Positions 18,850-24,800 of a stretch of DNA of 44,909 nt are shown piece after piece. Position 1 is the stretch's first letter; every line of letters starts with the position of its first letter. The notes below the pieces were generated by a model. It worked only from the letters and a program-made list of their open reading frames with translations, searched no databases and had not been told where the DNA came from. Source of the stretch: Reclinomonas americana ATCC 50394 (Eukaryota); NCBI GenBank assembly GCA_048213135.1, contig PS015102.1:1-44909 (forward strand), in the 5' to 3' direction. The position numbers were made by a program, and so were the translations under genes.

Positions 18850-21800
18850 TCAGAAACTGCCCTTGGCGCGGTACTCGACGCCAGCGTCGGCACTGCCGGC
18901 GCACACCGAGCGCACCACCGAGTCGTAGCAGGCCATGCGAATGCGCTCGCAGGTGGCGGGTGAGAAGAGAGTGAAGTCGCCGTCGACCAGGCCGCCGGCG
19001 TCGGCGCGAGCGGAGCCGATGGCATCTGTGATGAGGGGGCAAGGGGGGAGGTGAGGAATGGGGGAAGGGGGAAGAGAGGGGGAAGCGAAGGGGGAAGAGT
19101 GGGGGAAAAGTGGGGGAAGAGATGGGGGAAGAGAGGGGGAAGAGAGGGGGAAGAGAAGGGGGAAGAGAAGGGGGAAGAGAAGGGGAAAGAGAAGGGGAAG
19201 AGATGGGGGAAGAGATGGGAAGAGATGGGAAGAGATGGGAAGAGATGGGGGAAGGAGGGAAAGAGGGGAAAAGAGGGCGAAAGAGAGGGAAGAGAGGGAG
19301 AGAGAAAGAGGGAAAAGAGGGGGAAGTGGGGAAAGGGGAGGGGCTCAAGTGCATGACTCTCTTTCTGTCACTCTCTCTGCGATTGGTTCAGACGGTAAGC
19401 ACTACCGACACTCATATGGGCAGAGCGACACGAGAAGAAGCATAGGGAGAGACAGAAGCGCCGGACACGCGAACAAATAATACAACGGAGGGGCGAATAG
19501 GCGCAAGAGCACCCCGCCTCCCAATCTTTCCCCACAAAACGCACCCTTCACCGCGTAGAAGACCGACGAGCCGAGGAACAGCGGCGGTTCGCCGACGGCC
19601 TTGGACGAGTGAATGGCCTGCGTACTGCGCGTGAGCACGCCGAAAACTCGTTCGACACTCGAAAAATCAAGGAGGACTCAACTCGCGGGTTTGGTGAGTC
19701 GCGCAGCAGGGTGACGCGGAAATCAATGGGCACATCGTTGAAGGAGGGGATCTTGTACGTGCCCGGGCCGCGTGTATGCAGATACCCTGCCGGTCGCACC
19801 CACTTGTGCTCGGTGTCGCCCCACACGAGCTCCTCCAAGCAGAAGAGGCCGTAGCCTTGCACAAAGGCGCCCTCGATCTGACCCACGTCGATGGCCGGGT
19901 TGAGGGGCTTGCCGAGGTCCATCAAAATGTCCGCCCGCAGGATGTGGAAGTCGCCTGTGAGAGGCGAAGGGTGAGAGGAAGGGGAGGAAGGGGGGAAAGG
20001 GGAAGGGAGAGGAAAGGATGGAGGAGCAAAAGAGGTGCTCTGCAGCGTCATTTGTTGTGTCTGCCAGTCTCAATTTCACCTTGCTCCGGCTGCTCTATAT
20101 CCCCTGTCGCCTGATCTGTGCAGCCTGGAATCTTGTCCTCTCTCTCTCTCTCNNNNNNNNNNNNNNNNNNNNNNNNNNNNNNNNNNNNNNNNNNNNNNNN
20201 NNNNNNNNNNNNNNNNNNNNNNNNNNNNNNNNNNNNNNNNNNNNNNNNNNNNNNNNNNNNNNNNNNNNNNNNNNNNNNNNNNNNNNNNNNNNNNNNNNNN
20301 NNNNNNNNNNNNNNNNNNNNNNNNNNNNNNNNNNNNNNNNNNNNNNNNNNNNNNNNNNNNNNNNNNNNNNNNNNNNNNNNNNNNNNNNNNNNNNNNNNNN
20401 NNNNNNNNNNNNNNNNNNNNNNNNNNNNNNNNNNNNNNNNNNNNNNNNNNNNNNNNNNNNNNNNNNNNNNNNNNNNNNNNNNNNNNNNNNNNNNNNNNNN
20501 NNNNNNNNNNNNNNNNNNNNNNNNNNNNNNNNNNNNNNNNNNNNNNNNNNNNNNNNNNNNNNNNNNNNNNNNNNNNNNNNNNNNNNNNNNNNNNNNNNNN
20601 NNNNNNNNNNNNNNNNNNNNNNNNNNNNNNNNNNNNNNNNNNNNNNNNNNNNNNNNNNNNNNNNNNNNNNNNNNNNNNNNNNNNNNNNNNNNNNNNNNNN
20701 NNNNNNNNNNNNNNNNNNNNNNNNNNNNNNNNNNNNNNNNNNNNNNNNNNNNNNNNNNNNNNNNNNNNTTCCCACGTGGCGTCAGCGGCCACATTTTCGC
20801 GCACAGGTTTCAGCCGGTCGTTCAGCTGGTGATGGAGAGACGCGTATCAGCAAAATGCAAGATAGAGTGGTGGTGGTGAGAGAGGCCTGTGTACCTGCGT
20901 GCATGCGTCCAGAGCCGCGGTGCAGTACAGGTCGGAGCTCATCGAGGCAGCACTGGCAGATTGATTCGGCACCTGCAAGCACAACAAGATGATGCAGATG
21001 AGAATAAATGAAGGAAGAGAGAGAGAGGTGAGACGACAAGAGAGGCACGAGGGCACAAAAAACGAGAAACAATAAGGAAGTAAAAATCGAGAGAAAGAGA
21101 GAAAGAGAGAAAGCGAGAAAGAAAGAAAGAGAGAGAACGAGAGCAGGAGCACGAGAAACAGAGACCGACAAGCTTGTAGACACATGGAAGAGAGAGACAC
21201 AGAGAGACAGAGAGGGAGAGAGGGAGAGAGGGAGAGAGATGACAAGAGACACATGAGAGCTGCAACACGAAAGAGGCGACACGCACATCCAGAGAGGAGA
21301 GTCCCTTCCCAAACACGCGACACTCACCTTATCGGTGGCATTCTCCGCAATGTGCACGCGCGCCGTGGGCACACCGAGTGCCTGCGCCACCACCTGGATG
21401 ACCTTGATGTTGAGTCCCTGGCCCATCTCAATACCGCCGTGCGTCACGAGAACCGAGCCGTCCGTGTAAATGTGCACCAGCGCACCACCTATGCACGGCA
21501 TTCAGTTTCCGCAACTCAAATCCACAAAAAAGCTCCACGCCAAATACACGCACCCTGATTGAGCAGCTTCAGGCCAAAGGCAATGCCAAACTTGGTCGGA
21601 ATCAACGAGATGCCACGCTTGCGATACTTGTGCGCCGCGTTGAACGCGTCGACCTCGGCGCGGCGTCGCTCATACTCGCTGGAGGCGAGCAGCTGGCGCC
21701 AAATGTCGGGCAGGCGGCAGTGTTGCAGCTGCTGCCCAAAGTGCGTGTACTCGCCGTCCTTGTACATGTTGATGGTGCGCACGCGCACGGGATCGAGATT

Positions 21801-24800
21801 GTGTCGGCGGCAGATGCGATCTGCAAGCACTGTTGGTTCACACACACAATACCACGGCAACGAATCGTACGCAACCAATCGCCGACTCGATCACCATCAT
21901 GCCCTGCGGACCACCGAATCCGCGGAATGCCGTGTTCGACGAGGCGTTGGTCTTGCAGACGCGACCCTCCACATGCAAATTGGGAATCTTGTATGCGTTG
22001 TCCGAGTGCCATCTGGGCGATCGTCGAGGTCAGTGAAGGGTGGTATCTTTCACAAACACGAGTGCGGCGGACGCAACACTGCTCGCTGCATGACGGCTGC
22101 CGACAGATCGAGTGAGTAGCCGCCGTTGCTGAACAGCTTGGCTTCAAACGCCACAATGCGACCGTCGTCGTGGTAGCCGACCTGCGGAAGACAAAGTTAA
22201 GGAGATGCGGAGGAACCATCACAGGCGTCCTCTACGCAAAGCACCTTGTACTTGGCCACAAACGGATGCCGCTGACCGGTGATGAGCATGTCGACGTCTC
22301 GGTCGCACACGTAGCGCACAGGCCGTCGCAAGAGGAAGGCTGGCACACAAATCGCCGCAGTGATGAAGATGCTGCGCGTCTCCTTGCCGCCAAAACCGCC
22401 GCCGATGCGCTTCACCGTGCAGTTGACCTTGTGCTCGGGAATGCCCAACGCCGACGCCACCGTGTGCTGCGTGTGCGAGGCAGCCTGGGTGGAGCACATG
22501 ATCTGCACCTCGTCGTTCTCCTTCGGGACCACAATCGAGGCATTCGACTCGAGGTAAAAGTGCTCCTGGCCGCCGATGCGCATCTCGCCTGCATGGTGGG
22601 GCAAGGAGAGTCAGTCGCGGAGCGAAAAGGAGGAAAGAGGGGAGAAGAGGGTAGACATAGAGAAGAGAGAAGTGGAGAGAACAGGGGAGAGGAGAGAAGA
22701 GGGGAGACAAGAGAAGAGAGAGGGGAGAGGAGAACAGGGGAGAGGAGAGAAGACGGGAGTGGAGAGAAGAGAGAGGGGAGAGGAGAGCAGGGACGAGAGA
22801 GGAGGAGAGAAGAGGGGAGAGGAGAGGAGAAAGAGTGGAAAGAAGAGAAGAGGGGAGTGGAGAGAACAGGGGAGAGGAGAGAAGAGGGGAGAGGAGAGAA
22901 GCGAGAGCGAGAACGGGAGAACAAAGAGAGAGTGGACGAGAATGACATGGAGGAGAGATAAATGAGGAGGAAAAGGCACGACGCACGAGTAAAGAAAGAA
23001 GAGGGCATGAGGAAAAGCAGCAGAATGAAAAGAGAGGAGAGAATACAGCACAGGAAAGAGGGGAAAATACGAGGAGGAAAACGAACCTTCAATAACGTGC
23101 GCGGCCTGTGCAAAGCCGGCCTCGACGGATCCATCCTGCAGGCACCACGGCGGGTTGTAGAAGGAGCCAGCTTCGATGGCCTCGTCGATGGTCATGATCA
23201 CTGGGAGGTCCTCGTATTCCACCTGCGCGGGGAGTGAAGGATAAGACCAATGACAGAAGCGACAGGAAACCGAAGGAAACGGGAGAAAGGTGTGAGCGGG
23301 TAGAGAGTGGAGCGATGGAGAACTATGAATGCGTGGAGCAAGTGACTGAGTCGTGAGCAGCACTGAGACGTTTCACAAAGAGGAGAGTGAAAGGCATGTT
23401 TCGAACGAGAGAGAGATATGAAAAGCAGTGTGATCAGATAGTGCAGTGAAGCGCACGTGAAGAAAAAGACGAACAGTGTGAGAGCATACACTGTGGAAAA
23501 GAGACGCACGTACACAAGGAGTCGAAGAAATGACGAAGAGAGGGAGAGAGAGAGTGAGAGAGAGNNNNNNNNNNNNNNNNNNNNNNNNNNNNNNNNNNNN
23601 NNNNNNNNNNNNNNNNNNNNNNNNNNNNNNNNNNNNNNNNNNNNNNNNNNNNNNNNNNNNNNNNNNNNNNNNNNNNNNNNNNNNNNNNNNNNNNNNNNNN
23701 NNNNNNNNNNNNNNNNNNNNNNNNNNNNNNNNNNNNNNNNNNNNNNNNNNNNNNNNNNNNNNNNNNNNNNNNNNNNNNNNNNNNNNNNNNNNNNNNNNNN
23801 NNNNNNNNNNNNNNNNNNNNNNNNNNNNNNNNNNNNNNNNNNNNNNNNNNNNNNNNNNNNNNNNNNNNNNNNNNNNNNNNNNNNNNNNNNNNNNNNNNNN
23901 NNNNNNNNNNNNNNNNNNNNNNNNNNNNNNNNNNNNNNNNNNNNNNNNNNNNNNNNNNNNNNNNNNNNNNNNNNNNNNNNNNNNNNNNNNNNNNNNNNNN
24001 NNNNNNNNNNNNNNNNNNNNNNNNNNNNNNNNNNNNNNNNNNNNNNNNNNNNNNNNNNNNNNNNNNNNNNNNNNNNNNNNNNNNNNNNNNNNNNNNNNNN
24101 NNNNNNNNNNNNNNNNNNNNNNNNNNNNNNNNNNNNNNNNNNNNNNNNNNNNNNNNNNNNNNNNNNNNNNNNNNNNNNNNNNNNNNNNNNNNNNNNNNNN
24201 NNNNNNNNNNNNNNNNNNNNNNNNNNNNNNNNNNNNNNNNNNNNNNNNNNNNNNNNNNNNNNNNNNNNNNNNNNNNNNNNNNNNNNNNNNNNNNNNNNNN
24301 NNNNNNNNNNNNNNNNNNNNNNNNNNNNNNNNNNNNNNNNNNNNNNNNNNNNNNNNNNNNNNNNNNNNNNNNNNNNNNNNNNNNNNNNNNNNNNNNNNNN
24401 NNNNNNNNNNNNNNNNNNNNNNNNNNNNNNNNNNNNNNNNNNNNNNNNNNNNNNNNNNNNNNNNNNNNNNNNNNNNNNNNNNNNNNNNNNNNNNNNNNNN
24501 NNNNNNNNNNNNNNNNNNNNNNNNNNNNNNNNCGTCGTCGTCGAGTACGAGAGAGAGAGGAGAGAGAGAGAGAGAGAGAGAGAGAGAGAGAGTAAGTAAT
24601 ACTACTACGTACACGACGACGACGCGCCGACCGACCGCGTCGTCGTCTCTCTCTCTCTCTCTCTCTCTCTCTCTCTCTCTCTCTCTCTCTCTCTCTCTCT
24701 CTCTCTCTCTCTCTCTCTCTCCCTTATTTGCTTCGTGTGATAAGTGCGGAGAGCAGCACCAGCATATTGCCTGAAGTACAGTGGCACGCAAGAGATGATA

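Follow-up and report, generated by a model that had tools for sequence, protein, structure and literature searches.

A recurrent GTTGCGT 5' splice site in XDH and other genes of a Reclinomonas americana contig, most likely reflecting a donor register shifted by one base

Shifted-register 5' splice sites have been described in human genes, the GU that is cut lying one nucleotide upstream of the place where U1 small nuclear RNA (snRNA) pairs best (Roca & Krainer 2009, as cited in Tan et al. 2016, PMC4856993). In the account given by Tan et al. (2016, PMC4856993), both this register and a second one, with a bulge at positions +2/+3, are experimentally established in human cells, and the +2/+3 bulge register is predicted for 68 of 201,541 human 5' splice sites, 54 being left after curation (Roca et al. 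2012, via Table 3 of Tan et al. 2016, PMC4856993). The present analysis concerns 5' splice sites (donors) of the forms GTTGCGT and GTTGAGT in 44,909 nucleotides (nt) of Reclinomonas americana ATCC 50394 (contig PS015102.1), hereafter the window, a draft sequence with gaps (12 runs of N), and in the first place three such donors in a minus-strand xanthine dehydrogenase (XDH) gene of eukaryotic type. As judged from the sequence, they most likely represent a recurrent, lineage-specific use of a 5' splice-site register shifted by one base, the non-canonical registers themselves being already known. It is considered likely that an intact XDH gene is interrupted at the three sites by true U2-type GT-AG introns, and that the donors of these introns are the usual G/GTG(C/A)GT (the first slash marking the cut) displaced by one base, forming a recurrent class read by U1 in a shifted or bulged register.

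The host gene was delimited by tblastn with three XDH-family proteins, which gave an ordered series of matches on the minus strand from approximately 29931 to 18853. All 36 full-length proteins (1250 to 1480 residues) among 154 relatives were aligned into a profile of 1346 positions, on which at least 23 exon segments (18853..29931, minus strand), found by hmmsearch of the minus-strand open reading frames, are collinear over positions 20-1346, across the 2Fe-2S, FAD-binding and molybdopterin domains. A single XDH exon, used as the query of an exhaustive protein search, returned 3950 relatives; its best identity to any database protein is 68%. The nearest database proteins have the full XDH Pfam domain set, and the nearest protein clusters to this exon are named from green algae, a glaucophyte, a red alga and a plant. 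Scanning metagenomes yielded 49 loci, of which the top one shares 54% identity (or 64% over 42 residues), and none of these was near enough for an intron comparison. Parts of the gene fall in runs of N: the run at 20153-20768 (616 bases) removes approximately profile positions 1125-1178, and at least one exon with its splice sites is missing there.

The three introns are described here in the direction of transcription, all on the minus strand. The first (22013..22077, 65 nt, phase 2, donor GTTGCGT at 22077-22071) follows an exon ending in ...CGA GCA GT, has its 3' CAG at 22013 and is followed by A TGG CAC TCG GAC AAC, MQRAV being continued by WHSDNAY. Between it and the second intron sits an exon of 137 nt (21876..22012), which encodes WHSDNAY...FRGFGGPQG...ESAI at profile positions 892-937. 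The second intron (21821..21875, 55 nt, phase 1, donor GTTGCGT at 21875-21869) follows ...GCG ATT G, and its 3' CAG at 21821 is followed by AT CGC ATC TGC, for a protein reading ...ESAI-D-RIC.... As for the third (19618..19682, 65 nt, phase 0, donor GTTGAGT at 19682-19676), the upstream exon ends in ...TCA CCA AAC CCG CGA at 19683 and the 3' CAG is at 19618, the intron joining ...SPNPR to an exon that starts GCC ATT CAC TCG TCC AAG. Read-through of the XDH introns runs into stops, and their removal restores a frame collinear with the homologues. GT 5' ends and AG 3' ends, as in U2-type introns, are found in all three and in both carboxylesterase introns described below. Candidates for a branch-like CTNAY motif 15-35 nt before the 3' end, picked by eye only, are CACTGAC in the 22077 intron (19-25 nt before the 3' end), GCTCAC in the 19682 intron and GTGAAC/CCAAC in the 21875 intron; the branch and 3' regions appear, again by eye, alike in introns of the GTTG class and in regular ones. 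Concerning a possible origin from introners or repeats, the introns of the class looked alike in their donors only, in a comparison by eye.

The junctions were evaluated with no donor motif assumed. All donor/acceptor pairs lying at most 36 nt from the homology ends, with any dinucleotides and an open frame, were considered (1043, 1375 and 1378 candidates at 22077, 21875 and 19682, respectively), and each joined peptide was scored with the 36-sequence XDH profile. The junctions named above score 127.4, 208.7 and 221.1 bits, in the same order, which is the maximum at 21875 and 19682 and 0.2 bits under the maximum at 22077 (127.6, for slides with non-GT/AG ends). Only slides of 1-3 bases with non-GT/AG ends tie with or exceed them, the protein being the same or nearly the same. 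The runner-up canonical model is GC-AG each time, with 122.2, 201.1 and 216.0 bits, i.e. margins of 5.2, 7.6 and 5.1 bits. A previous, sequence-only reading of the window had proposed GTTGAGT at 19682 and GTTGCGT at 21875 and 22077; direct reading of the minus strand found all three at these positions, and its view that homology fixes the junctions agrees with the scores, each being the best canonical candidate and at or within 0.2 bits of the top of all candidates. Aligning the spliced protein with eukaryotic XDHs, a check which that reading had suggested, favours the named junctions as the best canonical ones against the 36-XDH profile. It had also placed the GT two bases upstream of 22077 in the wrong phase, which is correct: paired with the acceptor at 22013, the GT at 22079 breaks the frame and scores 31.9 bits vs. 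127.4, and its best in-frame acceptor brings it to 92.7. Its statement that these segments are length-conserved and leave no room for a codon slide holds at 22077 and 21875, where the alignment blocks are gap-free across the junction in 36/36 references, and was slightly overstated at 19682, where 2 of the 33 covering references have a one-residue insertion exactly at the site. A motif-blind gene finder (GT..AG plus codon scores) was also tried and discarded for the donor census, since it chained genes and chose downstream in-frame GTs (22059, 19677).

Over the XDH gene as a whole, 20 of 22 junctions were resolved as best canonical, the other two running into N. Six donors are GTG(C/A)GT and others are GTGTGT, GTGGGT, GTATGT, GTGCTT and similar, with one GTTCGT (23086). 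A related form, GTTGAAT (29782..29788, minus strand, phase 2), is the donor of the first mapped junction, where it is the best canonical candidate (118.0 bits vs. 112.2 for the next). GTTGMGT (M being C or A) therefore accounts for 3/20 XDH donors, or 4/20 with GTTGAAT included.

A second gene, coding for a carboxylesterase on the plus strand (35810-40822), was analysed with a profile from 67 homologues of 500-580 residues, models being compared across 39774-40195. The best model has two introns with GTTGCGT donors, of 59 nt (39913..39971) and 60 nt (40028..40087). It scores 34.8 bits, the top of 555 two-intron GT/GC-AG models, followed by a runner-up at 33.1; the best single-intron model with any dinucleotide reaches 27.7 bits (n = 3171), and a GC donor 3 nt downstream of 40028 gives 30.8 bits. 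The junction at 38019 has a plain GTGAGT donor. The last junction (approximately 40213-40480) is ambiguous, several models lying at 60-63 bits. Two side observations may be added for this gene. The introns at 39913 and 40028 flank a mini-exon of 56 nt (39972-40027, plus strand), and their donors have the same 8 bases, GTTGCGTG. At the last junction, a candidate tandem donor, CT/GTGG/GTGCGT, lies at 40205-40215 (plus strand), the alternative-GT models being within 3 bits of each other.

Taking both genes together, GTTGMGT represents 5 of 23 homology-pinned donors (3/20 in XDH and 2/3 in the carboxylesterase), with one more GTTGAAT, a share of about one in five that rests on 23 donors in two genes. 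In the window, GTTGMGT is present 22 times vs. 12.07 +/- 3.45 in dinucleotide shuffles, 22 being reached in 1/100, and the control GTVGMGT is at expectation (34 vs. 34.16). GTTGCGT is found 15 times on sense and 0 times on antisense strands (Markov-1 expectations 3.42 and 1.62; P = 3e-6), on a sense/antisense map drawn from Pfam matches and strand composition, with 9831-10849, 15001-16298, 29951-30599 and 40901-42399 excluded. GTAGCGT, GTCGCGT and GTGGCGT are at expectation, and among the 16 heptamers G-N-N-GCGT a clear excess on sense strands is confined to the canonical GGTGCGT (13:3) and to GTTGCGT (15:0). On the sense strands, GTTGCGT is about as frequent as the canonical G/GTGCGT and recurs as a likely donor in several genes of the window; the recurrent class is essentially GTTGCGT. 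Its context is also donor-like. With a codon model trained on XDH, outside which 13 of the 15 GTTGCGT sites lie, the median drop in coding potential is 13.3 at GTTGCGT vs. 16.0 at G/GTGCGT (P = 0.5), exceeding both the 3.9 found at all 2260 sense GTs (P = 6e-6) and the 2.3 found at GT[ACG]GCGT (P = 0.003). A full-text literature search, in which the motif queries mostly matched primers, found no earlier report of a GUUGCGU donor class, which is no proof of absence.

Seven more sense GTTGCGT are donor-like (615, 1251, 1970, 2770, 4060, 17234 and 32048). Each terminates a coding-like frame and, where no run of N intervenes, a short intron with a YAG acceptor follows, after which the frame resumes, as judged by hand. 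On this frame continuity, four of the probable introns are placed in a plus-strand gene for an S8 subtilase. The first (615..693, 79 nt) follows an open reading frame with the S8 catalytic-serine motif and has a CGCAG acceptor; the second (1251..1317, 67 nt) has a read-through stop after 12 codons and, past its CACAG acceptor, a frame that stays open for 108 codons; two of 68 nt each probably interrupt the C-terminal repeat region, at 2770..2837 (CACAG acceptor) and 4060..4127 (GCGCAG acceptor). In Rad1 (plus strand), a probable intron of 64 nt (17234..17297) shows a read-through stop after 10 codons and, past a TTGCAG acceptor, a frame that stays open for 79 codons, the exon upstream of it matching positions 135-212 of 257 of Pfam Rad1 and residues 143-218 of human RAD1. 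When searched alone, the downstream pieces of the S8 and Rad1 junctions matched no Pfam family and no solved structure. A further probable donor (32048..32054, plus strand) belongs to a lipase-like alpha/beta-hydrolase gene, in which the upstream exon matches Abhydrolase_1 to its end and the intron enters a run of N before any acceptor. Elsewhere the heptamer falls within exons (13822 and 25479), within introns (2016 and 40421), in a dispersed repeat of three copies (35510), or on antisense strands or outside genes (14966, 21409 and 40970), 8672 being undecided.

From these sequences we infer splicing at the GTs in question, as well as the register in which U1 would pair with them. Both donor forms fit one heptamer, G-(G/T)-T-G-C-G-T, which would be cut 5' of its first GU, and U1 snRNA would pair with the GCGT part alike in both. 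In the T form, the register would be one nucleotide off or, equivalently, one uridine would be bulged after the GU. The last base of the exon differs between the two forms: G was tabulated by hand at 15/17 regular donors (16 in XDH plus 38019) vs. 4/12 probable GTTGMGT donors (Fisher P = 0.0045), and a looser tally gives 15/16 vs. 5/14. This loss may be explained by the intron's own G taking that pairing position, which would fit a shift better than a bulge. Duplexes were predicted with a human-type U1 5' end, entered as a short motif, from which that of the host may differ. With it, the regular donors (n = 16) are all predicted to pair in the canonical register, with energies of -4.0 to -12.7 kcal/mol, and positions +6/+7 of the GTTG class, whenever paired, are predicted to pair with C4/A3 of U1, the partners of regular +5/+6.

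Several observations weigh against this account of the sites. With the same U1 end, the GTTG class is predicted to pair weakly whatever the register (-4.2 to +0.7 kcal/mol), and only 2/13 minimum-energy duplexes adopt the clean shifted register (G+1 with C9), with 1/13 in a loop register. GTTGAGT as a word is not enriched (4 sense vs. 3.0 expected). Among the 15 GTTGCGT on sense strands, at least four are counted as non-donors (13822, 40421 and 35510, with 8672 undecided), the strand count depends on the map drawn for the window, and approximately seven class members are probable ones, assigned by hand-judged reading-frame continuity. The carboxylesterase margins are small (34.8 vs. 33.1 bits at the first donor), and the residue inserted in two references at 19682 belongs here as well. 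Finally, homology does not separate slides of 1-3 bases: at 22077 a TT-GA slide ties (127.4 bits) and at 19682 a TT-GG slide gives the identical mRNA, the exact cut thus being placed by the GT-AG rule.

Some of these points would also be expected if the sites were ordinary weak GT donors with a T at +3 by chance, picked by short-intron definition or exonic signals, with no special register or class. U1 is predicted to pair weakly in all registers, the XDH donor GTTCGT (23086) has a +3T in the normal register, and GTTGAGT is not enriched. A chance +3T, however, would not bring G-C-G-T at +4 to +7, and G is at +4 in 6 of the 7 homology-pinned +3T donors. GTTGCGT stands at 15:0 vs. 3.4 expected, while GT[A/C/G]GCGT is at expectation, and only in this class is the exon-final G lost. 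This explanation is regarded as unlikely.

The class could also be served by a dedicated recogniser, either a protein factor or a variant U1 snRNA whose 5' end would complement GUUGCGU in full, instead of by a shifted standard U1. The heptamer hardly varies, being exactly GTTGCGT in 11 of 13 probable members (in a class that was itself collected by searching for that word), and this, together with the weak pairing energies, would allow for a special U1 variant or some other factor; the lost exon-final G points the same way. On the other hand, an Rfam scan of the window gave 0 matches to snRNA genes, the two classes look alike at the branch site and the 3' end, and a single U1 explains the one-mismatch relation to GGTGCGT more simply. 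A recogniser acting in place of standard U1 is improbable. A broader proposal, which embraces a U1 variant as one of its options, is put forward tentatively and at somewhat less than even confidence: two co-equal 5' splice-site forms, G/GUGCGU and /GUUGCGU, would be used constitutively, the latter in approximately one-fifth of introns, through a shifted register of U1 (and necessarily of U6) or through a dedicated U1 variant, at a rate hundreds of times that of the corresponding human register.

Alternatively, the introns could begin 3 nt further downstream, the exon keeping GTT and gaining one residue, with the frame kept and a GC-AG intron (GA-AG at 19682). An in-frame GC does lie three bases inside every GTTGCGT, it provides the next-best canonical model at 22077 and 21875, and 2/33 reference XDHs have an extra residue at the 19682 spot. 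Nevertheless, the GC model fits the homologues less well at all four sites, by 5.2 and 7.6 bits in XDH (22077 and 21875), where the blocks are gap-free in 36/36, and by 5.2 and 4.0 bits in the carboxylesterase, and 19682 would require a GA donor. GC-AG introns usually carry a strong consensus over the rest of the site, which GCGTCC and GCGTAC do not have. Such a downstream start is judged very unlikely.

That the extra T was inserted in GTGCGT donors by assembly or sequencing, or that the gene is a pseudogene in decay or was modelled wrongly, is scarcely credible even for a gapped draft in which an extra intronic base would leave the reading frame intact, since the same T would be needed at no fewer than 11 donors and never antisense, the XDH exons are open and collinear with profile positions 20-1346, and no donor motif entered into the derivation of the junctions. 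The sequence-only reading had likewise held that the shifted class is no modelling artefact, a view upheld by the junction scores, by the carboxylesterase as an independent gene and by the strand-specific statistics of the window.

As for the surroundings, the genome is rich in introns and repeats, with a regular donor consensus of GTGCGT/GTGAGT and CTNAC-like branch motifs; gene regions of the window have approximately 56-58% G+C, and introns are CT-rich on the sense strand. Besides XDH (approximately 29931-18853, minus strand) and the carboxylesterase, Pfam matches on 117 reading frames map an S8 subtilase with Kre9-like repeats (1 to approximately 9800, plus strand), an AAA ATPase (minus), Rad1 (plus), the lipase-like alpha/beta-hydrolase (plus) and a mitochondrial carrier (minus). 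Throughout the window, (GA)n/(CT)n microsatellites fill introns and spacers, the CT-rich strand always being the gene-sense strand, and this is probably why GTGAGT has no sense excess (16:17). To the S8 subtilase (1-9800) a long C-terminal stretch of Kre9/KNH-like, immunoglobulin-type repeats is apparently fused, with an EGF-like cysteine pattern near 8600. In the lipase-like gene, similar peptide stretches (the ...IF[V/I]ALAP... region) occur at 32500-32640 and 33900-33960 (plus strand), separated by a run of N of 959 bases; a duplicated exon or an assembly duplication is possible. Finally, three degenerate direct copies of a non-coding element (35318-35718, plus strand), 62-82% identical and spaced by approximately 130-170 nt, lie upstream of the first mapped carboxylesterase exon, and the GTTGCGT found in one of them is probably not a donor.

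Returning to the preferred reading, a one-base-shifted donor register, non-canonical U1 registers are known mainly as rare human exceptions and from minigene work. If GUUGCGU is a routine donor, it would offer a natural system for studying how the cut site is fixed when U1 binds one base off, and how U6 copes with displaced +4 to +6 bases. Gene finders with a single donor matrix would mis-model approximately one-fifth of the introns here, with frame shifts or added codons inside conserved motifs.

Among known systems, GC-AG introns come to mind because of the in-frame GC 3 nt inside each GTTGCGT, yet they fit 4-8 bits worse at four GTTGCGT sites and are inapplicable to GTTGAGT. U12-type introns resemble the class in that their 5' motif is long and hardly varies and that the last exon base is not conserved as G. 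A U12-type assignment was rejected, as GTTGCGT and GTTGAGT do not have the U12 5' consensus, and the branch and 3' regions look as in regular introns; a share of approximately one donor in five also far exceeds any known for minor introns. With the +2/+3 bulge register there is a formal likeness, GU-U-GCGU being readable as GUGCGU with a bulged U at +2 or +3. The frequencies differ widely, 68/201,541 in human, as tabulated in Tan et al. (2016, PMC4856993), vs. 5/23 homology-pinned donors in the window, where, moreover, the exon-final G is not conserved in the class. The human shifted-register sites, as presented in the same source, share with the class a consensus displaced by one base relative to the GU that is cut. 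They are rare and individually atypical, whereas the class described here, known from sequence, consists of one exact heptamer in at least five genes of 45 kb, at a count that matches the canonical one.

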